Below are positions 4,175 through 60,720 of a DNA stretch of 64,000 nt, in pieces. The stretch's first letter is position 1; the number at the start of each line of letters is the position of its first letter. The notes beneath the pieces were generated by a model that saw only the letters and a program-made list of their open reading frames with translations, did no database searches and was not told the DNA's origin. Made by a program: the position numbers and the translations under genes. The stretch is from Candidatus Eisenbacteria bacterium RBG_16_71_46. GTDB lineage: Bacteria > Eisenbacteria > RBG-16-71-46. Where the stretch lies: contig MFFQ01000026.1 of assembly GCA_001780165.1 (NCBI GenBank), positions 10,113-74,112 on the forward strand, in the 5' to 3' direction.

Positions 4175-4188
4175 AAAGGACGCTGGAG

Positions 4189-6386: not shown

Positions 6387-6388
6387 TC

Positions 6389-7516: not shown

Positions 7517-7555
7517 CCGGCCGCCCACCCACCCCCTCCAACCCCGGAATCCTGC

Positions 7556-10707: not shown

Positions 10708-10714
10708 GTGAAAC

Positions 10715-12961: not shown

Positions 12962-12977
12962 CCGGGCGAGGGACCTC

Positions 12978-20334: not shown

Positions 20335-20443
20335 TCGACCCAGACGATCGGACCTGACGACCGGATATGACCGGCCGCACCACCGCACCGCGCTTGTGAC
20401 GGCCCGGCGGTCTGCGTGAACCGCCGTTCCACGGAGGGAAGAT

Positions 20444-22575: not shown

Positions 22576-22579
<4 letters not shown>
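20444..22579 (+). CDS. ftsI: Peptidoglycan D,D-transpeptidase FtsI (PBP3-like) with a C-terminal PASTA region.
   Basis: STFK and KTGT transpeptidase motifs; an SSN motif is also present. The TTG start lies 6 nt after GGAGG. ATG at 20453 is an alternative start. Confidence 0.85.
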
Positions 22580-24044
<1,465 letters not shown>

Positions 24045-24051
<7 letters not shown>

Positions 24052-25466: not shown

Positions 25467-25470
25467 CGGC

Positions 25471-32434: not shown

Positions 32435-32464
32435 CCGCGATGGCACAGGGAGGTGAGTAGGACC

Positions 32465-33703: not shown

Positions 33704-33795
33704 ACCCATCACCGCCTCACCCCTGGAGGGCGTCGCGCGGCCGGCGGAACGGCCGCCGCCGCGGGTCCGCCGGGGAGGGCACAGGGAGTGGTGCC

Positions 33796-34959
33796 ATGTT
33801 CGAGCTGGAGATCGAGACCACCTCGTCGGCGAAGCTCAAAGTCATCGGATGCGGAGGCGCCGGCGGCAACGCCGTCAACCGCATGATCGGCGCCGGCCTG
33901 CGCGGCGTGGAGTTCATCGTCGCCAACACCGACATGCAGGCGCTCAACCAGTCGCTGGCGCCCCACCGGATCCAGATCGGGCTCAACTCCACACGCGGTC
34001 TCGGGGCGGGGGGCGATCCGTCGGTGGGCCGGCGCGCCGCCGAGGAGGACGAGCCGGGGATCAGCGATGCCCTCAACGACAGCGACATGGTCTTCATCAC
34101 GGCGGGCATGGGCGGCGGCACCGGGACCGGCTCGGCGCCGGTGGTGGCGCGGCTCGCGAAGCAGACCGGGGCGCTGACCGTGGCGGTGGTGACCAAGCCG
34201 TTCCTCTTCGAGGGCCGGCGCCGCATGCGGCAGGCCGAGGAGGGGCTCGCGGAGCTGCGCGCCGAGGTCGACACCCTGATCGTCATCCCCAACGAGCGCC
34301 TGCTGGCGGTGGTCGAACGCGGCACCGCGCTGTCGGAGGCCTTTGCCGTGTGCGACGAGGTGCTGCTCAAGGCGACCAAGGGCATCTCCGACCTGGTGAC
34401 GGTTCCCGGGCTGGTCAATCTGGACTTCGCCGACGTCAAGGCGGTGATGTCGAACCGCGGCAATGCGCTGATGGGCACCGGCCGCGCCTCGGGGCCGTCG
34501 CGCGCCGCCGAGGCGGCGCAGGCCGCGGTCTCGAGCCCGCTGCTCGAGGACGTCTCGATCGCCGGCGCCGAGGGGGTGCTGGTCAATATCACCGGCGGGC
34601 GCGACCTCACGCTGCACGAGGTCAACGAGGCCGCGGGGGTGGTGGTGAGTGCGGCGGGAGACGACGCCAACGTCATCTTCGGGGCGGTGATCGATCCCAA
34701 TCTGGACGGCGAGATGATCCTCACCGTGATCGCCACCGGATTCGGGGCCACCGAACCGCGGCTCAAGCTGCTCGATCGCACACGTGCCGCGGTCGCCGCC
34801 GCGACGCCCCGCGCCGGGGAGGACGAGGAGGACCTGCGTCACCCGCAGCCGTGGAAGCGCGGCGAGGAGAGCGCCGCGCGGCCCAATCGCTGGGGCCGCA
34901 GCGCCACGCGCGGCGAGTCGCTGGAGGTGCCGACATTCCTGCGCAAACAGATGGACTAG
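33796..34959 (+). CDS. ftsZ: Cell division GTPase FtsZ.
   Basis: Tubulin signature GGGTGTG and the NTDMQAL motif. A C-terminal variable linker is followed by a conserved tail. Confidence 0.95.
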
Positions 34960-35230
34960 GGCGCCGTCCGCACACGCCCGCGGGTCAGGCGCCGCGGGGG
35001 TCGCTTCCGTCGGGCGCGGTGCTCGACGCGCCCACCCTCCCTGGCTCCTGCGCGTCTGCGGAGCTCGCGCGGAGGTCCCCGCCCGCGGAGGCCCGCCGGG
35101 CACGGAGCACGATGCAAGCGACGCCCGCGACGCCTCGTCCGCGGGCGCTCGAGAACGGCGCCCGGAGCGTGTCGCGAGGCCGAACGCGGCGCGGTGAAAG
35201 GAGGGGGAGCTGGGCTTCTTCTCTACTCTG

Positions 35231-42162: not shown

Positions 42163-43560
42163 TTACGGGGCCTCCATCCGCCCCGACTCGCGCCGGCCCC
42201 CCAGGATGGTGAGCGCGCCCGCGAGCGCCACCAGTACGGCGCTCACCAGCAGCGCCGCCTCGGTCCCGAAGAAGCGCGTCACCCACGCCGCCACCGTCAC
42301 CGACGCCAGGAACATCAGGCGCATCAGGAAGTCGCGCGCGCTGAACACCCGCCCGCGCTGGCGCGGCTCGGTGCCCTCCTGGAGCAGGGTCTCGGAGAGC
42401 ACGAAGGCCGGCGCGGCGGAAAGGCCGATCAGGAACCCGGCGATCGCGAACACGGCGAATCGCGTGCTCACCGCGAAGACCACCAGGCCCGCGCCCACCA
42501 GCACCAGGCCGCCGCCGAGCAGCACCGGGCGGGGCAGCCGGCGCCCGTGCGTGTTCACCCACCAGGTGCCGAGCCCGGCGCCGAGGCCGAGCACGGTGAG
42601 CAACACGCCCAGCCGCTCCATGCCGGGGATCGCCGCCGCCCGCTGGATGTGCTGATTGCCGGCCACGTGCAGGAAGCCGCCGCCGATCCACACCGCGGAG
42701 AGTCCGATCAGCGCCACCCACACCGCCCGCCGTCGGCGGGTGAGGCGCCAGCCCTCGCGCACCTCCTGCAGGTAGCTTCCCGCCGAGATCTCGGGCGGTG
42801 GGGTCGTGACCGCGTGCGGCTGGTAGCGGACGAGCGCGAGCGCCACGACCGAGACCAGGTAGGTGCCGGAGTTGATCAGCAGCGCGGTGGGCCAGCCCCA
42901 GTGATCCACGATCCATCCACCGAGCAGCGCTCCAATCGCGGTGGAGGCGATGCCCGCCCCCGACAGCAGGGCGTTCGCGGTGAGCAGCTGCTTCGGGGCC
43001 ACGATCTCCGGGGTGATGGCGCTCTTCGCCGGGAGAAAGAAGACGTTGGCGGTGAACAGGGCGAAGACCAGCGCGTAGACCGGCACCGTGTGGTGGAGCA
43101 TCGCGTAGGCGAGCGGGATGAGCAGCACGATGACCGCGCGGATGAGATCGGAGACGATCAGCACCCGCTTGAGGTTCATCCGGTCCACCCAGGCGCCGGT
43201 GAACGGGGCGAACAGCAGCACCGGCGCGAGCATGACGTTGGCGAGCAACGACAACAGCCAGGGGGAGTTGGGATCCCGGAACTGGCGGGTGTGCTCGGCG
43301 AGCAACCCGACCAGGGCCAGGTAGGTGAGCCGCTCGCCGAGAATCGAGATGAGCTGCCCCCACCACAGCGCCGCGAAGTTGCGCTGGGTGAGGATGGGCG
43401 GCGGCTCTGGGGCCCCTGGGCCGTCCGGCGGCTCACCGTCGCCGGCGGTCGCTCCGGCGCTCGTCGCGGTCGAACGACTCGGGCGTTTCGACCGTGTGAG
43501 TCCGTGCACGCGACGCCTCTCCGCTCGATGCCCGCCGGGGTGCGGCGCGCCCGCACCCAT
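42163..43560 (-). CDS. MFS transporter.
   Basis: Twelve to fourteen predicted TM helices, with RNFAALWWGQLIS at the N-terminus. The N-terminal ~60 aa are low-complexity, so the true start may be internal. Confidence 0.7.
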   Translation of the reverse strand: MGAGAPHPGGHRAERRRVHGLTRSKRPSRSTATSAGATAGDGEPPDGPGAPEPPPILTQRNFAALWWGQLISILGERLTYLALVGLLAEHTRQFRDPNSPWLLSLLANVMLAPVLLFAPFTGAWVDRMNLKRVLIVSDLIRAVIVLLIPLAYAMLHHTVPVYALVFALFTANVFFLPAKSAITPEIVAPKQLLTANALLSGAGIASTAIGALLGGWIVDHWGWPTALLINSGTYLVSVVALALVRYQPHAVTTPPPEISAGSYLQEVREGWRLTRRRRAVWVALIGLSAVWIGGGFLHVAGNQHIQRAAAIPGMERLGVLLTVLGLGAGLGTWWVNTHGRRLPRPVLLGGGLVLVGAGLVVFAVSTRFAVFAIAGFLIGLSAAPAFVLSETLLQEGTEPRQRGRVFSARDFLMRLMFLASVTVAAWVTRFFGTEAALLVSAVLVALAGALTILGGRRESGRMEAP

Positions 43561-43645: not shown

Positions 43646-44452
43646 CTACGACGCGCCGCGGCCGCGGCGCAACCGCCGGCGTGGGGCGCCGGGCCCCGGG
43701 CGCGCCCGCCGCTCGGCCTGGTCCAGAGCGCGCGCGATCGCCACGGTGCGGAACGCCGCGGTGGCGGTCGAGGCCAGGGCGATGAAGGCCACCGCCAGTA
43801 CCAGCAAGCTGCCCGCGGCCCAGTGGAGGGCGGTGACCGCCACCGGATCGAGCAGCGACGCCAGCGCGAGCAGCACCAGGCGTTCGGCGCGCTGCATCAG
43901 CCCGCCGCGAAAGCTCACCCCCAGGCCCTCGCCGCGGGCGCGCGTGTAGCTGACCAGCAGCGAGCCGCCCAGGGCCAGGGCCACCGCGAGGATCCTCAGC
44001 GGCGACCCGGCGTAGAACATGGCCATGCCGGCGAAGGCGAAGGCCTCGGCGAATCGATCGAGCGTGGAATCCAGAAACGCGCCCGCGGGCGAGATCATGC
44101 CGCGCGCGCGCGCGATGCGGCCGTCGAAGACGTCGGCCGCGCCGCCGAGCAGCACCAGCCAGCCGCCCGCCGCCGGGGCGCCCTGAGCGTAGGCCACCCC
44201 GGCCGCCGCACCGAGGCCCACGCCCGCGAGATTGAAGACCAGCGGGGACACGCGGGCGCGCACCAGCGCCCGCTCGAGCGGCGCGATGACCCACATCAGC
44301 CAGTCGCGCACCCAGTGGCCGAGCAGCACGGTGGTGGGGCGGGCCGCCACCTCGGGGTCGCGGGGCCGTCCGCGCGAGACCAGCGCGTAGAGCGGCATGG
44401 TGAGCAGCAGGGCGGCCGCCGCGGCCAGAGCGAAGGCGTCGAGCGGGCTCAT
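43646..44452 (-). CDS. CDP-alcohol phosphatidyltransferase family protein.
   Basis: Catalytic motif DVFDGRIARARGMISPAGAFLDSTLDRFAE (D-G-x2-A-R-x8-G-x3-D-x3-D). Six TM helices. Length 268 aa. Confidence 0.8.
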   Translation of the reverse strand: MSPLDAFALAAAAALLLTMPLYALVSRGRPRDPEVAARPTTVLLGHWVRDWLMWVIAPLERALVRARVSPLVFNLAGVGLGAAAGVAYAQGAPAAGGWLVLLGGAADVFDGRIARARGMISPAGAFLDSTLDRFAEAFAFAGMAMFYAGSPLRILAVALALGGSLLVSYTRARGEGLGVSFRGGLMQRAERLVLLALASLLDPVAVTALHWAAGSLLVLAVAFIALASTATAAFRTVAIARALDQAERRARPGPGAPRRRLRRGRGAS

Positions 44453-46233
44453 CGGCCCCGCCCGGACCGGCGTCCGCGCAGGACGCGGATCGCCTTGGCC
44501 CACAGGAACACCAGCGGCCAGCGGCGCTCGCGACCGGTGAGCTCGATGGTCACGCCGGCACGTCGCTCGACCTTGTGCACCACGTAATCGAGCCAGCCGT
44601 CGTAGAGCGCCACGTACTTGCCCCAGCGCAGTGTCGCCCGCGCCTTGCTGGCGGCGAGGAAGCCGCGTGACCGCAGCCGAGCGAGCCGGCCCGGCGGACG
44701 CGGATCCCGGTACGCCGCGCCGTCGCGCGCGACCCGGCCGCGGGCCGCGAGGTGCTCGAGCAGGGCGGCGTACATCGGCGACAGGGTCTCGCGCTGGGCC
44801 GCGATCAGCGCGTCGAGGCGCTCCGCGCCCTCCGGGCGGATCTCGGCGGCGTAGGAAACCCGCAGGAGCGCCGTCCAGTAGGATTCGGCCGCGAAGCTCG
44901 AGGGGAGGTGGGCGCGGCCCCAGTCGAAGGTCGCCGCCCGTGCCGCGACCAGCGCGTCGACGACCGTCGCGCGCGCGGCATCGTCGCGGGCCCAGGCGAG
45001 TTGGACCTGCTGGAACAGGCGCGCGCGCGTGAAGTTGTCCTTCGCCCGCGGCGAGCAGGCGCGCCTGAGGTCGGCGAGGCTCAGGACCGCGCACTTGGCC
45101 TCCTCAGGCGGGCTCCCGGCCGAGACCGCGATCACGTTCGGCGGCAGCATCCGGTTGAGCAGGGCCGCTCCCGCCGGGGCGAGCCGCAGCCGCCCGGTCG
45201 CCGCCAGCGCCCGGTAGCCCTCGGCGTAGCGCTCCAGGATCACGAAATAGTCGCGAGCGCTATCCGCGGTCACGCCCGATCCCTGGGCGTGGGAGCCGTA
45301 GTGGAGGAGGGCGAGCGTGCCCGGTCCGAAGGCGCGGGCCAGGCCGCCGGCGATCCGCGCCGCGGCCGGGTCCGGCGGATGCTCCAGATCGCGCGCGAGG
45401 GCCGCGCGCAGGGCGGGATCAGCAGGCGGCATCGGCATGCCGCGAGGTGGCGGGGGGGCGGCGCGCATCCGCCCCAGGGCTTCGACCATGCGCGCGCGCA
45501 GCTCGCGAACGAAGCCGTCGTGAGCCGCGGGGTCGGCAGGGGCGGTGAACGGACCCAGCACCACCGCGCGGGCGGATGTCCCCGCGAGCCGGCGCGCGAC
45601 GTCGCCCAGGGTCCGCAGCCGCCACCAGCCGTCCACCACGACGGCATAGACCGGGCGGCCCGCGACGCGGGGGAGGATGATCCGCAGGCCCGAGGTCATG
45701 AAGGGCAGCATCTCACCATTGCGTGAGCGATGTCCTTCGGGAAAGATCAGCAGGGATTGCTCGCCTCGGGCGACCTCGTCGGCCGCGGCCGCCAGGGTTT
45801 CCCGCTCCTTTTCGGTGACCCGGCCGCCCTGGGCGACGAACGGGCAGCGGGCGAGGTGCATGATGTAGGAGATCCCCGGGATCCCCCGCGCATAGCTTGC
45901 GCGCGTCGGAATGAGCGGGTAGGGTCCCGGCCCGAGCAGGAAGGCCAGCGGCACGTCGAACAGCGACTGGTGATTCATCAGCACGAGACAGCTCTCCCCG
46001 GGGAGGGCGCCCTCGACCTCCAGCCGCAGGCCGGCCAGCCGCCGGGCCGGCGCCAGGACCGCGCGGGCCTGGAGTCGAAGCCACGCCCGCATCAACGCCC
46101 GGCGGCTGGCCGGGCGCAAGGCGACCAGCGGCCCGATGACCAGGCGTTGGATGGGCGCCATGATGAACAGGACGTAGGTGGAGTAGACTGCGAGAAATAG
46201 GAGGCTACGCCCTGCTCGGCTCAGTCGCGTCAC
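44449..46233 (-). CDS. Fusion protein: N-terminal lysophospholipid acyltransferase (PlsC/AGPAT-like) plus C-terminal nucleotidyltransferase-fold domain (Tam41/Mmp37-like).
   Basis: LPLAT motifs NHQSLFDVP (HX4D) and FPEGHRS lie in the N-terminal ~300 aa. The C-terminal ~330 aa carry an NTase-like G-S-x10-DxARD pattern (LLHYGSHAQGSGVTADSARDYFVILE). The start is ambiguous: GTG at 46233, ATG at 46161, or ATG at 46302. One TM helix lies upstream of ATG 46161. Confidence 0.6.
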   Translation of the reverse strand: MTRLSRAGRSLLFLAVYSTYVLFIMAPIQRLVIGPLVALRPASRRALMRAWLRLQARAVLAPARRLAGLRLEVEGALPGESCLVLMNHQSLFDVPLAFLLGPGPYPLIPTRASYARGIPGISYIMHLARCPFVAQGGRVTEKERETLAAAADEVARGEQSLLIFPEGHRSRNGEMLPFMTSGLRIILPRVAGRPVYAVVVDGWWRLRTLGDVARRLAGTSARAVVLGPFTAPADPAAHDGFVRELRARMVEALGRMRAAPPPPRGMPMPPADPALRAALARDLEHPPDPAAARIAGGLARAFGPGTLALLHYGSHAQGSGVTADSARDYFVILERYAEGYRALAATGRLRLAPAGAALLNRMLPPNVIAVSAGSPPEEAKCAVLSLADLRRACSPRAKDNFTRARLFQQVQLAWARDDAARATVVDALVAARAATFDWGRAHLPSSFAAESYWTALLRVSYAAEIRPEGAERLDALIAAQRETLSPMYAALLEHLAARGRVARDGAAYRDPRPPGRLARLRSRGFLAASKARATLRWGKYVALYDGWLDYVVHKVERRAGVTIELTGRERRWPLVFLWAKAIRVLRGRRSGRGR

Positions 46234-46300
46234 GAGGGACCGAGGCTGCGAGCCGGGGACCGCGGAGTCGGTGGGTGGGTCGTCCAAGCGGAGGGCACCC

Positions 46301-47575
46301 ATGGCAGCTCGGATGGACGTGAGAATCAAGGAAGAATTCTCCGATTACGACTACAGTAGCTTCTATTACTCGTCAAGCGACGACGTCTTCGCGATCCTCG
46401 ATCCCTACACCCGCTGGTACGACGAGGCGCAGCTCCGCGGCTACCACCTCTACGCCCAGCCGATGTCCACGCGCCCGCGCACGCGCATCGACCTCGAGGA
46501 CAAGCTCGATCGGAAGCGCGTCAATCTGCTCAACCTGTCGTCGTACAATTACCTGGGATTGTCCTACCGCGCCGAGGTGCTGGACGCCGCACGCCGCGCC
46601 CTAGACCAGTACGGACTCGGCGCCTCGGGCTCGCCGGTGCTCAGCGGCACCATGGACGTCCACCTCGAGCTCGAGCGCGAGCTGGCGGCCTTCAAGCGCA
46701 AGCCGGCGGCGATGCTGTTCCCCACCGGCTACAGCACCAATGTCGGCCTGATCCAGGGCCTGATGCGCCCCGGAGACCTCATCGTCGCCGACCAGAACTC
46801 CCACGCCAGCATCGTGGACGGCGCCATCCTGTCCAAGGCCGAGGTGCGCTTCTTCAAGCACAACCTCCCCGAGGAGGTCGAGCGCAAGCTGCGGGGCGCC
46901 ACGGGCAAGAAGCTGGTGATCGTCGAGGGCGTCTACTCCATGGACGGCGACGTCTGCCGCCTGCCCGAGATCGTCGAGATCGCGCGACGCCACGGCGCCC
47001 GCGTGATGATCGACGAGGCCCACTCGAGCTTCATCTACGGCGAGAGCGGCCGCGGGGTGGCCGAGCACTTCGGGCTCGAGGACGAGATCGACATCCACGT
47101 CGGCACCCTGTCCAAGGCCCTCGGCGGCCAGGGCGGTTTCGTCGCCGGCTCCGAGAGCCTCTACAAGTACCTGCAGGGCTTCGCCCGCGCGCGGCTGTTC
47201 TCCTGCGCGCTGTCGCCGGTGGTCGCCGCGGGCGTGCTGGAGGCGCTGCGCATCGCGGCGCGCGAGCCCGAGCTGCGGGCCCGGTTGTGGGACAACGTCG
47301 CCTATATCCGCAGCCGGCTCCGCGAGGAGGGCATCGACACCGGAGAGTCGACCTCGCAGGTGATCCCGGTGCTGGTGCGCAACGACCGCCGGATCTTCGA
47401 GATCGCCCGCCGGCTCCAGGATGCCGGCCTCTACCTGCAGCCGATCGTCTACCCGGCCGTGGCCAAGCACCGCTCGCGGTTCCGCATCTCGGTCTCGGCG
47501 GCGCACACCCGCGAGCAGCTCGACGAAGGGGTGGGGATCCTCGCCCGCGTCCTGCGCGAGGAGGGCGTGCGATGA
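46301..47575 (+). CDS. Alpha-oxoamine synthase family PLP-dependent acyltransferase (serine palmitoyltransferase/BioF/KBL-like).
   Basis: NLSSYNYLGL, a DEAHS motif and the PLP-lysine motif GTLSKALGG. A ~85-aa N-terminal extension resembles Spt more than KBL/BioF. ATG at 46313 is an alternative start. Confidence 0.8.
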   Translation: MAARMDVRIKEEFSDYDYSSFYYSSSDDVFAILDPYTRWYDEAQLRGYHLYAQPMSTRPRTRIDLEDKLDRKRVNLLNLSSYNYLGLSYRAEVLDAARRALDQYGLGASGSPVLSGTMDVHLELERELAAFKRKPAAMLFPTGYSTNVGLIQGLMRPGDLIVADQNSHASIVDGAILSKAEVRFFKHNLPEEVERKLRGATGKKLVIVEGVYSMDGDVCRLPEIVEIARRHGARVMIDEAHSSFIYGESGRGVAEHFGLEDEIDIHVGTLSKALGGQGGFVAGSESLYKYLQGFARARLFSCALSPVVAAGVLEALRIAAREPELRARLWDNVAYIRSRLREEGIDTGESTSQVIPVLVRNDRRIFEIARRLQDAGLYLQPIVYPAVAKHRSRFRISVSAAHTREQLDEGVGILARVLREEGVR

Positions 47576-48270
47576 AGGGGGCCGGTCCGTGCCGCTACCA
47601 GTATCGTGACGCGATCAACGGCTTCTTCGAGATCCCGACCGGGACCGCCCACGCCATCCTGCCCGCGGGCCTGCAGCCGGTCGAGCCGCATCACGGCTCG
47701 AGCGTGCTGGGTGTCACCGCGTTCGAGTTCCACGATTCCCCGGCCGGCGCCTATCGCGAGATCGCGCTCTCGATCTCGGTGGCGCCTCGCATCCTCGCGG
47801 GCGAATCCATGCCGCGCGCCGCGCTCTATCCGTTCCTGGTCGCCACCACCACGCGCGCCTCGCGCCAGCACGGCATCGAGGTCTGGCGCCTGCCGCACCA
47901 CGACCGCGACCTCGAGATCGCGTTCGACCGCGGCGAGCGCCGGGTGACCGTGACCGCCTCCGAGGGCCGACGCCGGCTCCTCGCGCTCACCGTCTTCGAC
48001 GCGCCTGAGGCCAACTGGCAGTCGGTCGAGCACCGCTACCAGACCTTTTCGCGTGACGACTCGGGGTCCTACCTCTCGGCGCTCGAGATGAGCGGTCCGT
48101 TCATGGAGCACGAAGAGGAGCGCGGCCGGCTCGAGCTGGAGCCCCGCGCCTTCTCCGCCGCATTCGACCTCGGCGACATCGACCCCGTTCCCTTCCGCGA
48201 GCAGTGGATGAAGGACGGGGTGGAGACCATCCATCCGCTCCAGCCGCTGGTGACGCACGCGGCACGATGA
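47572..48270 (+). CDS. Acetoacetate-decarboxylase-like (ADC-fold) protein.
   Basis: 232 aa. YQYRDAINGFFEIP and internal beta-rich segments suggest an ADC-like fold. ATGA overlap with the upstream gene. Confidence 0.4.
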   Translation: MKGAGPCRYQYRDAINGFFEIPTGTAHAILPAGLQPVEPHHGSSVLGVTAFEFHDSPAGAYREIALSISVAPRILAGESMPRAALYPFLVATTTRASRQHGIEVWRLPHHDRDLEIAFDRGERRVTVTASEGRRRLLALTVFDAPEANWQSVEHRYQTFSRDDSGSYLSALEMSGPFMEHEEERGRLELEPRAFSAAFDLGDIDPVPFREQWMKDGVETIHPLQPLVTHAAR

Positions 48271-49172
48271 CCCCGCGGGTGTGTGTGATCGTGAACCCCG
48301 CCGCGGGCCGGGGCCGCGGGGGACGCATGCTGCCCGCGGTGCGCGCCGCGTTTTCCGCGGTGGGTGTGGGCGACGTGCGGACCACGACCGGTCCGGGTGA
48401 GGAGGGGGATCTCGCGCGACGGGCGATCGCCGAAGGGTGCACGACCCTGGTCGGCGTCGGCGGCGACGGCACCTGGAGCAACGTGGCCGCGGCCATCCTG
48501 GCGGCGGGGGCCGATTGCCGCCTCGGCCTGCTCGCGGCCGGCACCGGCAACGACTTCGCCAAGACCGTGGGGGCGCCCGCGCGCGACCTGGCCGCCAGTG
48601 CCCGGCTCGCGGTCGAGGGGCCCGATCGGCACGTGGACGTCGGGACCGTCGAGGGGCACACCTTTCTCAACATCGCCGGTTTCGGCATCGACATCGCGGT
48701 GCTCGAGGAACTCGGCCGCGTGCGCTGGCTCCGCGGCGACGCGCTCTACCTCTTCGCGGCGTTGCGCCAACTCTTCGGCTATCCGGGCCTCGAGGTCGAG
48801 GTCGCCTCGCCGGCCGGCCGGCGGGGGGGTGGGCGCCACCTCATGCTGATCATCGCCAACGCCCGCCGCTTCGGCGGCGCCTTTCACATCGCCCCCGGAG
48901 CCGACCCCGCCGACGGCCTGCTCGACGCGGTGTCGGTGCTGGACGCGCCGCTGCTCGGGCGCTTCCGGCTGTTCGGCGCCGTCACCCGGGGTCGCCACGG
49001 CGCCCACCCGGAGGTGCGGACCGAGCAGGCCGCCCGCTTCACCTTGCGCTTTCCCGCGCCCCCCGCCTACGAGACCGACGGCGAGTACCGCCGCGCGCAA
49101 TCCCGCGAGCTGGAGGTGGCGTGCCTCCCGCGCGCGATCCGCATCGTCACCCCGGTGCCGGCGGTCATGTGA
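48267..49172 (+). CDS. Diacylglycerol-kinase catalytic-domain lipid kinase (YegS/BmrU/sphingosine-kinase-like).
   Basis: VIVNPAAGRGRG followed by GVGGDGT and GTGNDFA, which is the DAGK_cat signature. ATGA overlap with the upstream gene. Confidence 0.8.
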   Translation: MTPRVCVIVNPAAGRGRGGRMLPAVRAAFSAVGVGDVRTTTGPGEEGDLARRAIAEGCTTLVGVGGDGTWSNVAAAILAAGADCRLGLLAAGTGNDFAKTVGAPARDLAASARLAVEGPDRHVDVGTVEGHTFLNIAGFGIDIAVLEELGRVRWLRGDALYLFAALRQLFGYPGLEVEVASPAGRRGGGRHLMLIIANARRFGGAFHIAPGADPADGLLDAVSVLDAPLLGRFRLFGAVTRGRHGAHPEVRTEQAARFTLRFPAPPAYETDGEYRRAQSRELEVACLPRAIRIVTPVPAVM

Positions 49173-50413
49173 TGAAGGCGATACGCTTCGCCGCACCGCT
49201 CCCGACCTACCTGCTGACGCTCGCCGCGGGGCGGCTCTCGCCGCGGTTTTACGTCGGACCGCTCGCCTGCACCCGCTACGGCGAGGTGCCCGATCCCGCG
49301 CTGCCCGCGCCGGACTGGGTCAGCGTGCGCACGCGACTCGGCGGCATCTGCGGCAGCGACCTCGCGATCGTGACCCTCGGCGCCAGCCCGTCGACCTCTC
49401 CGTTCTCGTCGTTTCCGTTCGTGCTCGGGCACGAGAACGTCGGCGAGATCGTGGAGCTCGGTGCCGACGTCCGCGGCTTCGACCGCGGGCAGCGCGTGGT
49501 GGTGAACCCGCTGCTGAGCTGCGTGCCGCGAGCGATCCGCCCGGCGTGCGCGGCGTGCGCCGCCGGACGGCCGTCGCGCTGCGCGCACTTCACCGACGGT
49601 GCCCTCGCCCCCGGGATGTTCATCGGGACCACGCGCGGCGTGGGGGGAAGCTGGGGCGAGTGTTTCACCGCCCATGCGTCCCAGCTGGTCGCCGTACCGG
49701 AGAGCCTGTCGGACGAGGAGGCGGTGTTGGTCGAGCCGCTCGCCTGCGCGGTCCACGCGGTACGCTCGCACCTGCCGCCCGCGGGGGAGCGGGCGCTGGT
49801 CGTGGGGGCGGGCTCGATCGGTCTGCTCACCGTGGCCGCGCTGCGCGCGCTGGCGCCGGCCTCACCGGTCACGGTGCTGGCGCGGCACGTCTTCCAGGGC
49901 GAGCACGCCGAGCGGCTCGGGGCGGAGCGCGTCGTGATCGCCCGCGGGAGATACGTCGACGCGCTGGCCGAGGCCGCCGGGGCGCGGTTGCTGAGACCCG
50001 TCCTCGGCGAGCGCATCGCCGTGGGCGGATTCGACCGCACGGTCGTGTGCACCGGCGACTCGCGAGCGATGGAGGACGCGCTGCGGATGACGCGCGCCGG
50101 CGGGACGATCGTACTGCTCGGCAACGCGGTCCATCTGAAGGGCGTGGATTGGGCCCCCCTGTGGCTCAAGGAGCTGACGCTGGCCGGGAGCCTGGCCTAC
50201 GGCGCCCACGCGCATGGCGGGGCGACCCGGCACGCCTTCGAGGAGGCGGTGGCGCTGATCGCGGGTGGGCGCGCTGCGGTGCGCCCGCTGGTCACGCACA
50301 CCTTCCCGCTCGCCGACCACGCGCGCGCGCTCGCGACCGCGGCCGACCGCGGCGGCGCGCACAGCATCAAGGTGGCGTTCCGGCCGGGGCCGCCGGCCCC
50401 CGGGCCCGTCTGA
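49172..50413 (+). CDS. Zinc-dependent medium-chain dehydrogenase/reductase (threonine/sorbitol dehydrogenase-like).
   Basis: GICGSDL, the structural-zinc cysteine cluster CxxCxxGxxxxC and the Rossmann motif GAGSIGL. TGATG overlap with the lipid kinase gene. Confidence 0.8.
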   Translation: MKAIRFAAPLPTYLLTLAAGRLSPRFYVGPLACTRYGEVPDPALPAPDWVSVRTRLGGICGSDLAIVTLGASPSTSPFSSFPFVLGHENVGEIVELGADVRGFDRGQRVVVNPLLSCVPRAIRPACAACAAGRPSRCAHFTDGALAPGMFIGTTRGVGGSWGECFTAHASQLVAVPESLSDEEAVLVEPLACAVHAVRSHLPPAGERALVVGAGSIGLLTVAALRALAPASPVTVLARHVFQGEHAERLGAERVVIARGRYVDALAEAAGARLLRPVLGERIAVGGFDRTVVCTGDSRAMEDALRMTRAGGTIVLLGNAVHLKGVDWAPLWLKELTLAGSLAYGAHAHGGATRHAFEEAVALIAGGRAAVRPLVTHTFPLADHARALATAADRGGAHSIKVAFRPGPPAPGPV

Positions 50414-51768
50414 TGCCGGAGGTCGATCCTCCCCCGGGACCGTCCCCGGCCGAGCCCGGCCCGCCCGCGGCCTCGGCGGGCGAGGGGACCGCCGCGCCCG
50501 CTCCGCGCCGCGCTCGCCTTCATCTTCGTTACCGTGGTGCTCGAGGTCCTGGCGCTCGGCACCATCCTGCCGGTGCTGCCGCGGCTGGTCGAGACCTTCA
50601 GGGGCGGCGATACCGCGCGCGGCCGAGATCTACGGTCTGTTCGGCACCGTCTGGGCGATGATGCAATTCGTCTTCTCTCCCGTGATGGGCGCGCTCTCCG
50701 ATCGCTTCGGTCGCCGCAAGGTGATCCTGACCTCGAACTTCGGCCTCGGCTTCGACTACATCCTCATGGCTCTGGCACCCACGATCGGCTGGCTGTTCGT
50801 GGGCCGGGTCAGCTCCGGCATCAACGGGGCGAGCTTCACCACCGCGGGCGCCTACATCGCCGACGTCACGCCTCCGGAGAAGCGTGCCGCGGGGTTCGGC
50901 ATGATGGGCGCCGCGTGGGGGCTCGGCTTCGTGCTGGGGCCGGCGCTGGGCGGCGTGCTGGGCGGGATCGATCCGCGGCTGCCGTTCTTGGGCCGCGGCG
51001 GGGATGACGCTGCTCAACGCCCTCTACGGTCTGTTCGTGCTGCCGGAGTCGCTGTCGCGCGCGCGCCGCCGAGCATTCGCCTGGCGGCGCGCCAACCCGG
51101 TCGGATCGCTCAGGCTGCTGCGCTCGCATCCCGATCTGCTCGGAATCGCCTCGGTGAGCTTCCTCTACTACCTCGCCCATCACGTCCTGGCGAGCGTCTT
51201 CATCCTCTACGCCGGCTACCGCTACGGCTGGGGCGAGACCACGGTCGGCCTCACCCTCGCGGCGGTGGGCATCTGCAACATCGCGGTGCAGGGTGGCCTG
51301 GTGCATCCGGTGGTGGCGCGCTTCGGCGAGCGACGCACGCTGCTCGTGGCGCTGTTCTTCGGCGCCGTGGGGTTCGCGATCTACGGGCTGGCTCCGACCG
51401 GTACCGCGTTCTGGCTCGGGACTCCGGTTTTTTCCGTGATCAAGCTCTACTCGCCCGCGGCCCAGGGGCTGATGACGCAGCGCGTCGGCTCCTCGGAGCA
51501 GGGACAGCTCCAGGGCGCCAACAGCAGCATCATGGGGATCACCGGGCTGTTCGGACCGGTCCTGTTCACGCTCACGTTCGCCAGCTTCATCGGCGCGCGA
51601 CGGACTTGGCACCTGCCCGGCGCCCCGTTCCTGCTCGCGGCCGCGCTGATGCTCGTCGCCGTGACTCTGGCCTGGCGCGTCACGCGCCCGCGCCGCGAAC
51701 CGTCGTCTGCCGGGAGGCGTCAGGCCGCGGAGTTGAGCGCTCCGCGGCGCCCGAGCACTTCGCGGTAG
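50413..51768 (+). pseudogene. MFS transporter (TetA/TCR-like), interrupted by two to three +1 frameshifts.
   Basis: Canonical MFS segments lie in three different frames. TM1 LAFIFVTVVLEVLALGTILPVLPRLVETF runs from 50507. AEIYGLFGTVWAMMQF...GALSDRFGRRKV...PFLG runs 50610-51000. MTLLNALYGLFVLPES... runs from 51004 to the end. The shifts fall in G/C runs near 50600 and 51000. Confidence 0.6.
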
Positions 51769-52862
51769 ACCGCCTCGATCTGATCCGTCACGCGTGGCCA
51801 GGCGAAGTCGAGCGCCCGGGTCCGACCGCGCTGGCGCAGGGCCGCCTGCCGTGCGGGATCGTCCACCAGCTGGACCAAGGTCCGGGCCAGCGCCGAGACG
51901 TCCTCGGGCGGAAAGACCAGGCTGTCCTCGCCGGGTTTGACCACCGAGCGATAGCCGGGGATGTCGGAGGCCACCACCGCGCATCCGGCCGCCATCGCCT
52001 CGAGCAGCACGATGCCGAAGCTCTCGTTCCCCGTGGCGGGAGAGACGAAGATGTCTCCGGTGGTGTACCAGCGCGGCAGGTCGGTGCTGGGCACGTGACC
52101 GAGGAAGTGCACGTGCTGGCGGATCGCGGCGGGCACGGTGGACTCGAAGTGCGATCGCAGGTAGGAATCCCCGACGATCAGTAACCGGGCGCGATAGCGG
52201 GTGCGCTCCAGCACCTCCGGCATCGCGCCCAGCAGGTGCTGCAGGCCCTTGCGCGGGTCGAGCCGGCCCACGAACAGCAGGTTCACACGCTGCGGGTCGC
52301 GCCACTCCTCGAACGGCGGGGCGTCGGCCCGGAAACGCTCGACGTCGACCCCGTTGGGGATGACGTGGTAGGGCCCCGGGTAGTACCGCGCCGCCGAATC
52401 GCGGGCGGTGCGCGAGACCGCGATGCGCGCGTCGAGGCGTCCGACGGTGTCGCTCAGGTACGACTTGAAGGTGTCCTGCAGAAAGCTGCGCCCGGCAGTG
52501 GTGTGGAAGGTCCCGACCTGCGCGCAACGCGCGGCCCGCACCGCGAGGATGGGCAGGCTGGGGGCGTTCGGGCTGTGGGTATGCAGCAGGTCGAAATCGT
52601 GCTTCCGGATCAGACCGCGCAGTTGCCGGCTCAGGTTCAGGCCGAGCGTGAAGTCCACGAACGCGCGATTGAACGGTATCAGGATGTTGTAGCCCACACG
52701 CTCGACGCCCGCTGCGTGATTGGACTCCCCGTCGCGGAAGCGGCTGGTGATGATCGTCACCTCGTGGCCGCGCCGGCGCAGCTCGACGGCGGTCGAGTGC
52801 ACGTGCTCGGTGACGCCGCCGTAGCGCGGGTAGTAGGACTGGGTGACGATTCCGATCTTCAC
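51720..52862 (-). CDS. GT4 glycosyltransferase, PimA-like (phosphatidylinositol alpha-mannosyltransferase-like).
   Basis: VKIGIVTQSYYPRYGGVTEHV at the N-terminus and ESFGIVLLEAMAAGCAVVASD in the C-terminal half. Length 380 aa. It starts at GTG with GGAG upstream. The track ORF 51720..53801 is over-extended. Confidence 0.7.
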   Translation of the reverse strand: MKIGIVTQSYYPRYGGVTEHVHSTAVELRRRGHEVTIITSRFRDGESNHAAGVERVGYNILIPFNRAFVDFTLGLNLSRQLRGLIRKHDFDLLHTHSPNAPSLPILAVRAARCAQVGTFHTTAGRSFLQDTFKSYLSDTVGRLDARIAVSRTARDSAARYYPGPYHVIPNGVDVERFRADAPPFEEWRDPQRVNLLFVGRLDPRKGLQHLLGAMPEVLERTRYRARLLIVGDSYLRSHFESTVPAAIRQHVHFLGHVPSTDLPRWYTTGDIFVSPATGNESFGIVLLEAMAAGCAVVASDIPGYRSVVKPGEDSLVFPPEDVSALARTLVQLVDDPARQAALRQRGRTRALDFAWPRVTDQIEAVYREVLGRRGALNSAA

Positions 52863-53764
52863 GCTTCCAGGCTCCGGGCCGCCCCGGCCGGCGCCTCGTG
52901 CTCGCTCGGCATGCCCTCCCACAGCGGGCGGAATATGCACCACTGCCCCAGGTGCTCGCGGATGTGGCGTTCGACGGTCGTGGCCACGGCCGTGTGGAGG
53001 GCGTCGGTGCTGGCAAAGGTCTCGGGATCGAGCGGGGGCTCGAGCACGATGCGAAAGCGGCCGGGCTCGAGTCGCTCGCAGTAGCCGCAGATGATGAGCG
53101 CTCCGGTGCGCTGCGCCAGCACGCCGGGCCCGGCGGGGAAGGGGGTCTCGCGCCCAAACATCTCGACGCTCGTTCCGTGTCGATAGACGTCGCCGTCCAC
53201 CATCAGGGCGACGAAGTCGTTGTGCTCGAGCGCGCGCAGCAGCCGCCGGAAGCCATCTTCGGGCGCCACGGTGTGGATGGCGAGCTCGCTCTTCGTCTCG
53301 CGCACCGCGGGGGTGAGCCAGCGGCTGATCTGCACGCCCGCCACCGCGAAGATGGTGTAGCCCCAATGCGCGAGCATCACCGCCCCCAGCTCCCAGTTCC
53401 CGATGTGGGTCGAAGCCAGGATCACGCCGCGCCCACGCGCCGCCGCGCGCTCGAGGTGCTCGCGCCCCACCACCTCGATCGAGTCGAGCAGGTCCTCGCG
53501 GGTGAGGTGGGGGAGACGGAAGAACTCGAACAGCATGCAGTTGTAGCTGTACATCATCGAGCGGACCACCCGCAGGCGCTCGCGCCGGGTGGCGCGCGGC
53601 ATCGCCGCGGCGAGGTTGGTGAGCGCGGCGTGCCGGCGGGCGGGAAACGCCCGAAAATGCAGTTCGGTGAGCACGCGGGCGAGGAAGTACCCCACCCTCA
53701 AAGGTAGGCCAGCCATCAGGGATGTCAGCCAGCCGAAAACGAGTCGAGACATCCTGTTCCCCAC
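52859..53764 (-). CDS. LpxL/HtrB-family lipid acyltransferase (PatA-like).
   Basis: The LABLAT/LpxL-family acyltransferase HX4D motif STHIGNWELG. Length 301 aa. Its stop overlaps the pimA-like GTG start (GTGA). Confidence 0.65.
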   Translation of the reverse strand: MGNRMSRLVFGWLTSLMAGLPLRVGYFLARVLTELHFRAFPARRHAALTNLAAAMPRATRRERLRVVRSMMYSYNCMLFEFFRLPHLTREDLLDSIEVVGREHLERAAARGRGVILASTHIGNWELGAVMLAHWGYTIFAVAGVQISRWLTPAVRETKSELAIHTVAPEDGFRRLLRALEHNDFVALMVDGDVYRHGTSVEMFGRETPFPAGPGVLAQRTGALIICGYCERLEPGRFRIVLEPPLDPETFASTDALHTAVATTVERHIREHLGQWCIFRPLWEGMPSEHEAPAGAARSLEA

Positions 53765-54046
53765 TCTCCAAGAAACGGCGGGCAGGCCGATTGCGCCGCA
53801 ACGTACGGCTTGGCTGGAAACCCTGTCAAGCCCGGACCGGGGCGCATTCCCGGCGCACGCACGCCTGATCCGGCGTGCTGCCAGCGGGTTGCGGCGTTCG
53901 GTGATTGACCTGCCGCGGTCCGCCCACTACGATGCGCGCAAGCCTTGGATGGCGAAGCCGGGCCCGGGCCCGGCTTCGCGCGTCGTCGCGGCGCGGCGGC
54001 CGCCCGCGGCGATCGCCGTCGCGTGGTTTCGCCGGGAGGAACGCCG

Positions 54047-54463
54047 ATGTCCAGCCAAAAACTGGTGCGTTGCGAGTTGCGTCCCCGGGGAAAGAACGCG
54101 CCGGGCTCCCCGCGCTACATCCCGCTCGAGATCTTCGGTCTCTGGGAATACATGATGAGCACCAAACACGCCTTCGAGGTGCTCGACGCCCGGGCCTCGC
54201 TGTGGCTGGACATGGAAGACTCTCCGGAGGCGGCTTACAGCGCGGGCCAATACGAGCGGGTGACCGAGGTCACGGCGTTCGTCTATTCGGGCCGCGACGA
54301 GATGTTCACCCGGGCCTGCCGCTACTTCCCCTCGGAGCAGATCGACCACCTCAAGCCGATCTTCCTCTCCCACTACCAGGACAATGGTTCCAGGCTCCAG
54401 ACCCAAGTGCGCGAGCGCGTGGGGATCTGGCTCCACCGCGACTCCACCACGACCACGATCTGA
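54047..54463 (+). CDS. Hypothetical protein.
   Basis: 138-aa ORF with GGGAGGA 7 nt upstream of the ATG. No recognisable motif. About 410 nt of non-coding sequence with GC-rich hairpins follows it. Confidence 0.4.
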   Translation: MSSQKLVRCELRPRGKNAPGSPRYIPLEIFGLWEYMMSTKHAFEVLDARASLWLDMEDSPEAAYSAGQYERVTEVTAFVYSGRDEMFTRACRYFPSEQIDHLKPIFLSHYQDNGSRLQTQVRERVGIWLHRDSTTTTI

Positions 54464-54875
54464 ACACCCCGGTGGGGCCCAACCCCCGCCCGCATGCCCG
54501 CTTGCGCCGCCGGCCTCCCGGCCGGGAGCACCACGGCGAGCCGCCCCCCCGGGGGGCGTCGCCCGCGCCAGCCCTCCGGAATTCGCTGAAGGCCGTCTTT
54601 CTGCCCGCCGATACACCGCGCGAAGGATGGTGCCCGCGTGGCGTCGAGCGGGGGGGCCTGCGGCGCCCCCGCTTCGGAGCGCGACGCCGGGCGCTCGCAC
54701 AGGAGATGCGCGACCCCATCCGGTGCGTGAGGGCTCGATCGGGCCTCGTGCGTCAGGCATGGGTGCCGTCGAACGGTTCGATCCACCTTCGAAGTACCTT
54801 TGGAGAAAGGGCGGCAAGGGGCTCCATGGGAATCCGCTTCGTGACAGGGTGGGGTCGCACAGGGAGGAACACACC

Positions 54876-55970
54876 GTGGTCGTGGTGAGCTATTCGGGCA
54901 AGGAGATCAACGCCAAGCTGGTGTACTACGGCGCCGGCCTGAGCGGGAAGACCACTAACCTCGAAGCCATCTACGAGGCTGTGCCCGAGACCAGCCGCGG
55001 CAAGATGGTGAGCATGAAGACACAGTCGGATCGCACCCTGTTCTTCGACCTGCTTCCGCTGGACCTGGGCGAGATCATGGGGTTCAAGACGCGCTTCCTG
55101 CTGTACACGGTCCCCGGGCAGGTGTTCTACAACGCCACCCGCAAGCTGGTGCTCAAGGGGTCGGACGCCATCGTGTTCGTCGCCGACAGCGAAGTCGGCA
55201 AGATGGAGGAGAACAAGGAGAGCCTCGCCAACCTGCGCGCGAACCTGGCCGAGTACAACCTCAGCCTCGATCAGATCGCCTGGGTGATCCAGTACAACAA
55301 GCGCGACCTCCCGAACGTGTACACGATCGAGGAGCTGAACGCCGAGCTCAATCCGGGCGGCAAGGTGCCGTTCTTCGAGGCCGTGGCCACCCAGGGCAAG
55401 GGCGTGTTCGAAACCTTCCGCGGAATCTCCCACATGCTGATGGAGAAGGTGACGCGGGACCTGCGGCGGGCCCCCGGGGGCTCCGGCTCGCGGCCGACGC
55501 ACCCGGCCGCCGAGGCCCCGGCTCCGCCCGCCCGTCATGCCCAAGCCGCCGCACCGTCCGCGCCAGGGCACGTGATCGCCCGCGAGGCCTTCCAGAGCCC
55601 GGCGTTCGAGGAGAACGGCTCCGAGCAGGTGGACTACGGTCGCGAGATCGAGCTGCCGGAGGAGATTCCGGCGCCGCGCGCGAGCGCCGCACCGCGGGCC
55701 CAGGCCGCTCCCCCGGCGGCGCCCGCCGCGCCCGCGCCGGTCCGCGAGCCCAGCCGGCCGGCGCCGCGCGCCGCGGTGGCGACGCCCCACGCCCCTGCGC
55801 CGCCGGCGCCCCAGGCTCAGGCGCCCGCAGCGCGCCCACGGCCCTCGATCGAGGCGCTGGCCCGCGTCGAGGCCGAGGCGCGGAGCGACGCAGTGGTGGT
55901 TCCGATCACGATTCCGCGCGGCACCTCGCGCGAGATCGTGCTGCGGATCGTCATCAGCGACGGCGAGTAG
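54876..55970 (+). CDS. MglA-like Ras-superfamily small GTPase with a Pro/Ala-rich C-terminal extension.
   Basis: The N-terminal ~190 aa align with MglA (SYSGKEINAKLVYYGAGLSGKTTNLEAIYE, TVPGQVFYNATRKL and NKRDL are the G1, G3 and G4 motifs). Next comes a ~130-aa PA-rich low-complexity segment, then a ~35-aa C-terminal domain. GTG starts 7 nt after GGGAGGA. Confidence 0.7.
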   Translation: MVVVSYSGKEINAKLVYYGAGLSGKTTNLEAIYEAVPETSRGKMVSMKTQSDRTLFFDLLPLDLGEIMGFKTRFLLYTVPGQVFYNATRKLVLKGSDAIVFVADSEVGKMEENKESLANLRANLAEYNLSLDQIAWVIQYNKRDLPNVYTIEELNAELNPGGKVPFFEAVATQGKGVFETFRGISHMLMEKVTRDLRRAPGGSGSRPTHPAAEAPAPPARHAQAAAPSAPGHVIAREAFQSPAFEENGSEQVDYGREIELPEEIPAPRASAAPRAQAAPPAAPAAPAPVREPSRPAPRAAVATPHAPAPPAPQAQAPAARPRPSIEALARVEAEARSDAVVVPITIPRGTSREIVLRIVISDGE

Positions 55971-56062
55971 CGCTTATCGCGCGATTTGACCAAAGCTTGA
56001 AACCCGCGGCGGCGGTCATCGTTCCGGTTGACTTCGGAGGCGCGGGTTCCTACCTTCATCCC

Positions 56063-56518
56063 ATGCGCCACTCGACTCTGCTCGCGGCACCCGTCCTGAT
56101 GATCGCCCTCGCGCTGCTCGCGGGACCCACGGCGGCGCAGTCGCCGCTCGGCATGCCCGCGCTCGGCGCGTACTCGCCCAGAGTCCCGGTGACCGGACTC
56201 GGCCTCGCGAGTTGGTTCGACCCCTCGCGCCTCCATCTGTCCACGTCGGTGAGCGTGGGCACGGGCTTCGGCGGCGGCGCCCAGGGGCTGCAGGTCACCA
56301 GCCTGAACTACCAGTTCCGCGCGCCGATGACGATGAGCGTGAGTCTCGGCAACGCCCTCGGCGGCCCCGCCGGCGCCCGTGGCTCCTCGATCTTCCTCGA
56401 GGGCCTGCGCATGGCCTACCAGCCGAGCCCGTCGATGCTCTTCCAGATCCGCTACCAGGATCTCCGCTCGCCGCTGCAGTACCAGTCCTCACCGTACGAT
56501 CCCTTCCGGTTCCACTAG
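56063..56518 (+). CDS. Small secreted protein with a signal peptide (hypothetical).
   Basis: MRHSTLLAAPVLMIALALLAGPTAAQSP looks like a Sec signal peptide with an AXA site. A promoter-like TTGACT-17-TACCTT lies upstream. Confidence 0.45.
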   Translation: MRHSTLLAAPVLMIALALLAGPTAAQSPLGMPALGAYSPRVPVTGLGLASWFDPSRLHLSTSVSVGTGFGGGAQGLQVTSLNYQFRAPMTMSVSLGNALGGPAGARGSSIFLEGLRMAYQPSPSMLFQIRYQDLRSPLQYQSSPYDPFRFH

Positions 56519-60437: not shown

Positions 60438-60492
60438 GCTGACTGTCCACAGGCGATGCGCGCCCGGACCCCGGAGCGGAGGACGCTTCACC

Positions 60493-60720
60493 ATGCTGGT
60501 CCTAACAAGGAAGTTAGGCGAAAACATCCGGATCGGAGATTCGGTGAAGATCACCGTGCTGGAAGTGCGCTCGGGCCAGGTGAAGCTCGGCATCGAAGCG
60601 CCGCCCGAGGTGAAGGTGCATCGCGAGGAAATCTATGCCCGGATCCAGGAAGAAAATCGGCGGGCGGAGCGGCAGAAGGCCGAGGGTGGAGCCGCGCCGA
60701 CCAAGGAGCCGGACAAGTAG
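60493..60720 (+). CDS. csrA: Carbon storage regulator CsrA.
   Basis: [25 protein letters not shown]...GIEAP is the canonical CsrA sequence. Length 75 aa. Confidence 0.95.

Follow-up and report, generated by a model that had tools for sequence, protein, structure and literature searches.

The 64,000-nucleotide stretch of the Candidatus Eisenbacteria bacterium RBG_16_71_46 genome analyzed here, referred to as the window, has a GC content of 72.8%, and its real genes are marked by a third-position GC (GC3) of about 0.9. This work concerns two adjacent genes on its minus strand, a patA-like acyltransferase of the LpxL/HtrB/PatA superfamily (52859..53752) and a pimA-like GT4 glycosyltransferase (51720..52862), together with the lipid genes that accompany them. 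Both frames have a GC3 of ~0.90. The acyltransferase open reading frame (ORF) reaches a first GTG at 53764; ATG 53752 is the likelier start and gives a protein of 297 aa, the same length called on an independent assembly. The GT4 gene encodes 380 aa from a GTG start, which shares the four nucleotides GTGA (52859..52862, minus strand) with the TGA stop of the acyltransferase gene, as read directly from the sequence. A 4-nt overlap of the form [A/G]TGA recurs in ~20 related loci of several lineages and is therefore a conserved feature rather than a product of chance. In Pfam, the acyltransferase matches Lip_A_acyltrans (PF03279) at 1.9e-40, and the GT4 matches the two halves of a GT4 enzyme, Glycos_transf_1 at 1e-36 and Glyco_transf_4 at 2e-32. 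These results uphold the earlier note on this DNA, which had described an LpxL/HtrB-family acyltransferase translationally coupled to a GT4 through GTGA.

Both genes carry a hypothetical annotation in RBG_16_71_46, the GT4 being OGF16516.1 ('hypothetical protein A2W00_13175'). Close homologues of the GT4 bear the automatic JGI name 'phosphatidylinositol alpha-mannosyltransferase' and are called GT4 or hypothetical at NCBI. A promoter and terminator scan of 51.4-54.2 kb yielded nothing informative.

Relationship of the pair to PimA and PatA

Among all PDB sequences, the best relative of the GT4 is PimA of M. smegmatis, with 184.8 bits, E = 2e-53 and 35% identity in an end-to-end match. Other GT4 families trail (PimB' 83.6 bits, MshA-type 68, WaaG 56.6), and models of GT4 glycosyl-diacylglycerol (glycosyl-DAG) synthases give weak matches of 52-71 bits. 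A search of 1.84 billion cluster representatives with the GT4 returned 362,756 GT4 matches, 1,229 of them at E <= 1e-30. Two of the best 150 of the 362,756 are 51% identical to M. smegmatis PimA, one of these from Nocardioidaceae, and the presence of actinobacterial-type PimA inside this set places the window GT4 and true PimA in one narrow subfamily.

A resemblance to PimA in the N-terminus and the EX7E region had been proposed beforehand, and it proved real: the N-terminal GG loop and the motif ESFGIVLLE align with PimA. Residues Y9, Q18, Y62, N63, R68, H118, R196, E199, R201 and E274 are mutationally critical in PimA, with R68 as the proposed contact to the phosphate of phosphatidylinositol (PI) (PMC9202250). 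The window GT4 keeps N63, the donor-side and catalytic residues G15, G16, H118, R196, R201 and K202, and the stretch E274-SFGIV-E282; Y62 is F and E199 is D. An attempt to read the sugar donor from the guanine contacts R228, D252, D253 and K256 was abandoned. D253 and K256 are not kept in the window GT4, nor in PimB', and since PimB' uses GDP-mannose yet lacks the guanine contacts, the donor of the GT4 cannot be read from its sequence.

For the acyltransferase, the top NCBIfam model is NF005919, the acyltransferase of phosphatidylinositol mannoside (PIM) synthesis, at 135.4 bits. The next is an LpxL model 40 bits lower (94.7, vs a cut-off of 248). In the PDB, PatA (5f2t) comes first with 76.7 bits, ahead of LpxM with 48.8. 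The catalytic His126 of PatA is invariant in 18 homologues, the block-3 position of Glu200 is Asp in all 18, and W130 is kept. HtrB, MsbB and PatA use Glu or Asp at this block-3 position, and His126 and Glu200 form a charge relay in PatA (PMC4792965). The structural network of PatA is lost, Y83 being M or N, D131 E, Y163 T, A or V, and R164 K.

The patA-pimA-MFS module and its inserted lipid cassette

Genomic context was scanned in species-representative genomes and metagenomes, with 6-10 kb flanks fetched. The acyltransferase lies directly upstream of the GT4 in Eisenbacteria (GT4 identity 66-76%), in metagenome-assembled genomes (MAGs) labelled Gammaproteobacteria/Pseudomonadales (~63%), in UBP1 (~50%) and in Krumholzibacteriota (44-48%), and most of these pairs keep the 4-nt overlap. 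A gene for a transporter of the major facilitator superfamily (MFS) adjoins the pair in more than 30 loci; it follows pimA in all of them except one, in which it precedes patA. What is conserved is thus a three-gene lipid module, patA-pimA-MFS. Some loci carry the pair without the MFS gene. Patescibacteria/Kerfeldbacteria have the GT4 alone, without patA, MFS or inositol genes. Genes of ~190 aa and ~370 aa upstream of the GT4 in Patescibacteria-type loci were considered as a phosphatidylinositol-phosphate (PIP) synthase and an inositol-1-phosphate synthase (MIPS) and rejected; judged from their translations alone, without a family-library scan, they resemble a small membrane-anchored protein and GAPDH or another housekeeping protein.

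The window copy of the transporter (42163..43509, minus strand; the ORF reaches 43560) matches Pfam MFS_1 and MFS_3. Its NCBIfam scores are 161 bits for TIGR00900, 92 for the MFS part of Aas-type acyl-ACP:phospholipid acyltransferases and 56 for the lysophospholipid flippase LplT. Compared with the MFS proteins encoded after pimA elsewhere, it is 62-74% identical in other Eisenbacteria, 53-57% in the 'Gammaproteobacteria' MAGs and 29-37% in UBP1 and Krumholzibacteriota. One relative (L046) has the order trpA, three small genes, divergent patA-pimA-MFS, a Zn-ribbon gene, recG and ftsZ. The window shares this frame, but a seven-gene cassette (43646-50413) sits between pimA and MFS.

Three genes divergent from patA in the window (53945-56518, plus strand) encode proteins of ~138 aa, ~364 aa (small-GTPase-like, with a weak Arf match) and ~151 aa. 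The ~138-aa and ~151-aa genes adjoin patA across Eisenbacteria; in UBP1 and Krumholzibacteriota, only the GTPase-like gene was found there. Such shared gene order suggests that these lineages inherited the module vertically. The MAGs labelled Gammaproteobacteria/Pseudomonadales (L009-L012, L026, L029) have contigs of up to 2.66 Mb, a GC content of 61-64% and a patA-pimA-MFS ~63% identical to that of Eisenbacteria, and unlabelled metagenome contigs (L055, L057, L064) carry the module at similar identity. The flanks of L011, judged from sequences, are unrelated and hold P450, LLM oxidoreductase and TerC genes. The 'Gammaproteobacteria' copies point to horizontal transfer or to mis-binned taxonomy.

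The cassette occupies the place between pimA and MFS in at least five independent loci (the window together with L001, L047, L048 with L051, L013, and L056). Its plus-strand arm encodes a serine-palmitoyltransferase (Spt)-like enzyme, an ADC-like protein, a lipid kinase and a Zn-dehydrogenase, and its divergent arm a PlsC acyltransferase, a protein of Tam41 fold and a CDP-alcohol phosphatidyltransferase resembling synthases of PIP or archaetidylinositol phosphate (AIP). Among PDB entries, the Spt-like protein (46301..47575, plus strand, 424 aa), an alpha-oxoamine synthase, matches Sphingobacterium Spt (3a2b/8guh) best, with 307 bits vs 246 for the next family. NCBIfam BioF/Kbl/Spt models give it 356-379 bits, under their cut-offs, and Spt models 258-357 bits vs cut-offs of 500-670. 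It is followed by the ADC-like protein (47572..48270, plus strand, 232 aa), which has a weak PF06314 match (1.7e-5), is kept in the cassette of relatives and found no PDB relative. Next come a YegS/BmrU/DgkB-family lipid kinase (48267..49172, plus strand, 301 aa; TIGR00147 at 132 bits, above the cut-off of 118.65, with DgkB and YegS as PDB relatives) and a Zn-dependent medium-chain dehydrogenase (49172..50413, plus strand, 413 aa; ADH_N and ADH_zinc_N, with weak matches to ketose reductase, sorbitol dehydrogenase and threonine dehydrogenase). In L051, an Eisenbacteria relative, pimA is directly followed by a gene (11164-12003) of the Asp/Arg beta-hydroxylase family, to which the lipid hydroxylases LpxO and OlsC belong; asnA, a multicopper oxidase gene and then the cassette come next.

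In the divergent arm, a 570-aa fusion ORF (44449..46161, minus strand) joins an N-terminal PlsC-type acyltransferase (45454-46161; PF01553) to a C-terminal nucleotidyltransferase of Tam41 fold (44452-45453), which in relatives are two separate, overlapping genes. The C-terminal 334 aa gave no Pfam match even at E = 10, PF09139 included, and no PDB sequence match. A cytidylyltransferase had been predicted beforehand from the position of this part and its nucleotidyltransferase-like GS...D motif. An AlphaFold model built with 36 homologues reached a pLDDT of 90, and the top five Foldseek matches in the PDB were all Tam41 CDP-DAG synthases (E = 5e-6 to 2e-4, probability 1.0, TM-score 0.49-0.63; best match E = 5e-6, TM-score 0.53/0.63), whereas the next matches had a TM-score of ~0.22. 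The structural model thus predicts a Tam41 fold, a nucleotidyltransferase plus winged helix, in a previously unrecognized family of ~315 proteins, all annotated 'hypothetical', lacking a Pfam domain and confined to Eisenbacteria and Gemmatimonadota. The likeness to Tam41, the CDP-DAG synthase of mitochondria and Firmicutes (PDB 6ig2, 6ig4, 7ecd), lies in this predicted fold, to which no other fold comes comparably close in TM-score, and in a place between an acyltransferase and a CDP-alcohol transferase that fits a CDP-lipid synthase; the difference is an identity of 10-12%, with no detectable sequence similarity.

The last gene of this arm (43646..44452, minus strand) encodes the CDP-alcohol phosphatidyltransferase of 268 aa. 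It scores 124.3 bits with the AIP synthase model of NCBIfam, 102.8 with that for PIP synthase and 100.5 with the BT1523 type, vs ~20 for pgsA and pssA models, and its best PDB matches are the PIP synthases 5d92, 6h5a and 6wm5. The motif Dx2DGx2ARx8Gx3Dx3D is present as DVFDGRIARx8GAFLDSTLD. The arginines of its RxxR motif (RAER) and of transmembrane helix 6 align with R153 and R191 of RsPIPS, which bind the phosphate of inositol phosphate and are specific to enzymes that use inositol phosphate (PMC4634129). A CDP-alcohol phosphatidyltransferase acting as a PI-synthase-like enzyme 8 kb upstream of the pair had been suggested in the earlier note. The gene is real and its assignment is strengthened, as the enzyme is of the PIP/AIP-synthase type rather than PgsA or PssA and keeps both inositol-phosphate arginines; its location has to be corrected, the gene being found at lower coordinates than pimA, 7.3 kb away and thus downstream of it as the genes are transcribed.

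Beyond the cassette, a second, TetA-like MFS gene runs convergently to pimA (50406..51768, plus strand) as two ORFs, of which the C-terminal half (51004-51768) aligns with positions 169-390 of Tet(A)-type models. A gap of ~245 nt separates the two ORFs both in the window and in the independent assembly L001, where the N-terminal fragment is called separately, and the gene is absent from related loci. Since it is split in both assemblies, it is probably a disrupted gene or pseudogene.

Proposed pathway and competing explanations

The best characterized relatives of the two coupled genes are consecutive enzymes of one pathway, and the module probably makes an acylated glycolipid, with the GT4 glycosylating a lipid head group, the acyltransferase esterifying the sugar and the MFS protein translocating the product or its lyso form. 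Substrates, sugar donor, order of steps and direction of transport in this scheme are predicted from homologies, catalytic residues, coupling, conserved synteny and the make-up of the cassette. In the first step, the peripheral GT4 would move a hexose from a nucleotide sugar onto the head group of a membrane lipid on the cytoplasmic side; if it works as PimA does, that hexose may be mannose, donated by GDP-mannose. With acyl-CoA or acyl-ACP as source of the acyl chain, the coupled PF03279 enzyme would then esterify the sugar by a His/Asp charge relay, and the MFS protein would take the product, or a lyso form of it, through the inner membrane. Synthesis of an acylated glycosyl-phospholipid or glycolipid, as first suggested for this pair, is thus supported by the PimA and PatA scores and by the PIP/AIP type of the CDP-alcohol enzyme.

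In this genome, the likeliest acceptor is an inositol-phosphate lipid, which the cassette would supply as PI or as a sphingolipid carrying inositol; for this narrower proposal we see the chances as evenly balanced. It is put forward because of the homologies, the repeated insertion of the cassette inside the operon and an operon in Methylomirabilota. The make-up of the divergent arm is read as acylation, formation of a CDP-activated lipid and addition of an inositol-phosphate head group: the PlsC acyltransferase and/or the lipid kinase would yield a lipid phosphate, the Tam41-fold enzyme would convert it to a CDP-lipid, and the PIP/AIP-synthase-like enzyme would add inositol phosphate.

The Methylomirabilota operon (L095; GCA_035636015.1, 1723-7152) encodes a PIP synthase, a MIPS, two PF03279 acyltransferases, a PHP phosphatase and a PimA-type GT4. 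This GT4 belongs to the same subfamily and is 42% identical to that of the window, the PF03279 enzymes are 31-32% identical, and the host is again non-actinobacterial. It differs in that its GT4 keeps Y9 and R68, and in being linked to MIPS and a short classical PIP synthase, without MFS, Spt or Tam41-like genes. Judged by gene content, the operon resembles a full pathway of PIM type in a phylum other than Actinobacteria and is the clearest genomic evidence that the PimA subfamily and PF03279 acyltransferases are linked to inositol-lipid synthesis beyond that phylum. By extension, such a role becomes plausible for the sister clade, which includes the window GT4.

Several results weigh against an inositol-lipid acceptor. 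In a neighbor-joining tree rooted on PimB' and lacking support values, the window GT4 falls in a 'QSYY' clade, and mycobacterial PimA in a separate clade with P8-Y9 and R68 ('PY[D/S]...R68'), which L095 joins. By search scores, the enzyme belongs to the same narrow subfamily as PimA and not with the GT4s of lipopolysaccharide (LPS); in the tree it lies outside the bona fide PimA clade, and the two clades are treated as sisters rather than orthologues. Across the QSYY clade, three acceptor-side residues of PimA are swapped (Y9 to S, Q18 to T, and R68 to D, N or H), and no conserved basic residue of the acceptor loop stands in for R68. The acyltransferase misses the equivalog cut-off of NF005919 (209 bits), and the CDP-alcohol enzyme stays under all of its cut-offs (180 for AIP synthase, 170 for PIP synthase, 350 for the BT1523 type). 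A motif scan and tblastn with the Methylomirabilota MIPS detected no MIPS in the window or the fetched Eisenbacteria loci; over the window and all fetched loci (~0.7-1 Mb), the sole find was in the Methylomirabilota locus. Most loci with the three-gene module have no PIP-synthase gene within the fetched flank, and in other lineages tblastn detected none within 6 kb of pimA, even at E = 1. The cassette, finally, also occurs alone, without patA and pimA, in Gemmatimonadaceae (L049). The strict reading of the pair as true PimA and PatA orthologues that make PIM is accordingly not established, given the replaced Y9, Q18 and R68, the missed cut-offs and the MIPS result.

The main rival holds that the product is an acylated glycosyl-DAG, the GT4 acting on phosphate-free DAG and the acyltransferase adding a third chain to the sugar, with the cassette an unrelated insertion at a recombination hot-spot. 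The clade-wide loss of Y9 and of R68 without a basic substitute would suit an acceptor of this kind, as would the many modules lacking a nearby PIP synthase, the solitary GT4s of Patescibacteria/Kerfeldbacteria and the weak matches to glycosyl-DAG synthase models. Those matches, however, come from profile models and are far exceeded by the 185 bits obtained with single PimA sequences; the cassette lies precisely between pimA and MFS in each of the five or more loci, and the Methylomirabilota operon connects the subfamily with inositol genes. We regard a glycosyl-DAG product as rather unlikely, at perhaps half the weight given to an inositol-lipid acceptor.

More ambitious, and improbable as a whole, is the idea that the 10-kb locus holds all the genes of an undescribed pathway for an acylated glycosyl-inositol-phospho-sphingolipid, which would be the bacterial equivalent of the mannosyl-inositol-phosphoceramide (MIPC) of fungi and plants. 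The Spt-like enzyme and the Zn-dehydrogenase would make a long-chain base, which the PlsC-type enzyme would N-acylate; the YegS-type kinase would then form ceramide-1-phosphate, the Tam41-fold enzyme CDP-ceramide, and the AIP/PIP-synthase-like enzyme would add inositol phosphate. The PimA-like and PatA-like enzymes would glycosylate and acylate the head group, and the LplT-like MFS protein would flip the product. If this route were true, the LplT-like MFS would become a candidate family for the still unknown flippase step of PIM synthesis.

A role in LPS assembly, with a lipid A late acyltransferase of the LpxL/LpxM type and a core GT4 such as an LpcC-like mannosyltransferase acting on Kdo2-lipid IVA, is very improbable. 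The host comes from a presumably diderm lineage among the FCB-related candidate phyla. As a PF03279 member, the acyltransferase is also recognized by many LpxL/LpxM models, the highest score being 95 bits, and LpcC is not among the references of the GT4 comparison. All LpxL, LpxM and LpxP models nevertheless remain far under their cut-offs (248 or more) and under the PatA model. The earlier note had stated that a PIM-like interpretation would fail if the GT4 grouped with LPS GT4s and the acyltransferase with LpxL/LpxM; this grouping was not obtained, PimA scoring 185 bits against 57 for WaaG, and PatA 76.7 against 48.8 for LpxM. No lpx, kdt or waa genes occur in any Pfam-annotated neighborhood, the constant partner is an LplT-like MFS of phospholipid type, and monoderm Patescibacteria carry the GT4 clade. 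Least probable of all is lysolipid salvage of the LplT/Aas type, in which the MFS protein would import an outer-leaflet lyso-lipid for re-acylation with the GT4 separate or accessory: the MFS does resemble LplT and the MFS domain of Aas-type fusions and has the acyltransferase as a constant neighbor, but this acyltransferase is of the LpxL/PatA rather than the PlsC/Aas type, is translationally coupled to the GT4 and not to the MFS gene, and occurs with the GT4 in some loci that have no MFS gene.

Comparison with known systems and other features of the window

The closest parallel is the mycobacterial operon pgsA1-patA-pimA (Rv2612c-Rv2611c-Rv2610c), which shares with the window its gene order, PatA and PimA as best characterized relatives, catalytic residues and the presence of a PIP-synthase-type gene in the locus. 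The mycobacterial order claimed for the pair holds in so far as the acyltransferase precedes the GT4 on one strand, as in Rv2611c-Rv2610c; it fails for the PIP-synthase-like gene, which is not first in the operon but 7.3 kb off, in a separate cassette. The window proteins are just 35% (GT4) and 29% (acyltransferase) identical to their mycobacterial relatives and have lost PimA Y9, Q18 and R68 and PatA Y83, Y163 and R164. The window module also has an LplT-like MFS gene as its third conserved member, and its host belongs to a candidate phylum.

Two further systems show partial likeness. The inositol-lipid cluster BT_1522-1526 of Bacteroides thetaiotaomicron (PMC9246714) likewise includes a PIP-synthase-type enzyme and belongs to an FCB-group organism, one that makes Spt-dependent sphingolipids as well, but it has a MIPS and a PIP phosphatase and lacks the GT4/PatA pair, the Tam41-fold enzyme and the lipid kinase, whereas the window cassette is without MIPS. 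LplT/Aas of E. coli also pairs an LplT-type MFS protein with a lipid acyltransferase; the window acyltransferase differs in being a PF03279 enzyme instead of PlsC plus acyl-ACP synthetase, and in having a glycosyltransferase coupled to it.

Among bacteria, inositol lipids are considered rare (PMC9246714). The papers on PIM synthesis found in a literature search were all on Actinobacteria. The search found no description of PimA/PatA-type genes, inositol lipids or the cassette in Eisenbacteria or related phyla, and none of Tam41 with bacterial sphingolipid genes. Already known was the automated GT4 label PimA; new are the PimA/PatA-like pair with its MFS partner, the divergent acceptor-side residues and the linked cassette with Spt-like, Tam41-fold and PIP-synthase-like enzymes. 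In Actinobacteria, PimA, PatA and PgsA1 are essential and of interest as drug targets. The window comes from an uncultured soil bacterium, and acylated inositol glycolipids may occur far beyond Actinobacteria. Occurrence of the module in Eisenbacteria, Krumholzibacteriota, UBP1 and a gammaproteobacterial lineage, together with the Methylomirabilota operon, would suggest that acylated glycosyl-inositol lipids or close analogues are an old and widespread part of the envelope in uncultured soil and sediment bacteria. The cassette itself, with its Spt-like enzyme, Tam41-fold family and inositol-phosphate transferase, offers a concrete candidate pathway for bacterial inositol lipids or inositol sphingolipids and may provide a hitherto undescribed way of making an inositol-containing phospholipid or sphingolipid.

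Elsewhere, the window contains a polysaccharide-biosynthesis cluster (1-17900) with GT2 and GT4 enzymes, a methyltransferase, a Wzx-type flippase, asparagine synthase, a YfhO-like protein and a GNAT protein. It is followed by a complete dcw cell-division cluster (18900-35000), running from mraW to ftsZ, and then by a TPR protein gene and recG. Between the genes for a SpoIIE phosphatase and a histidine kinase, at ~60490-60720 on the minus strand, lie a csrA homologue and a 67-aa ORF; according to the gene calls of the identical contig L001, they stand upstream of a pair encoding a PAS-histidine kinase and a sigma-54 response regulator.

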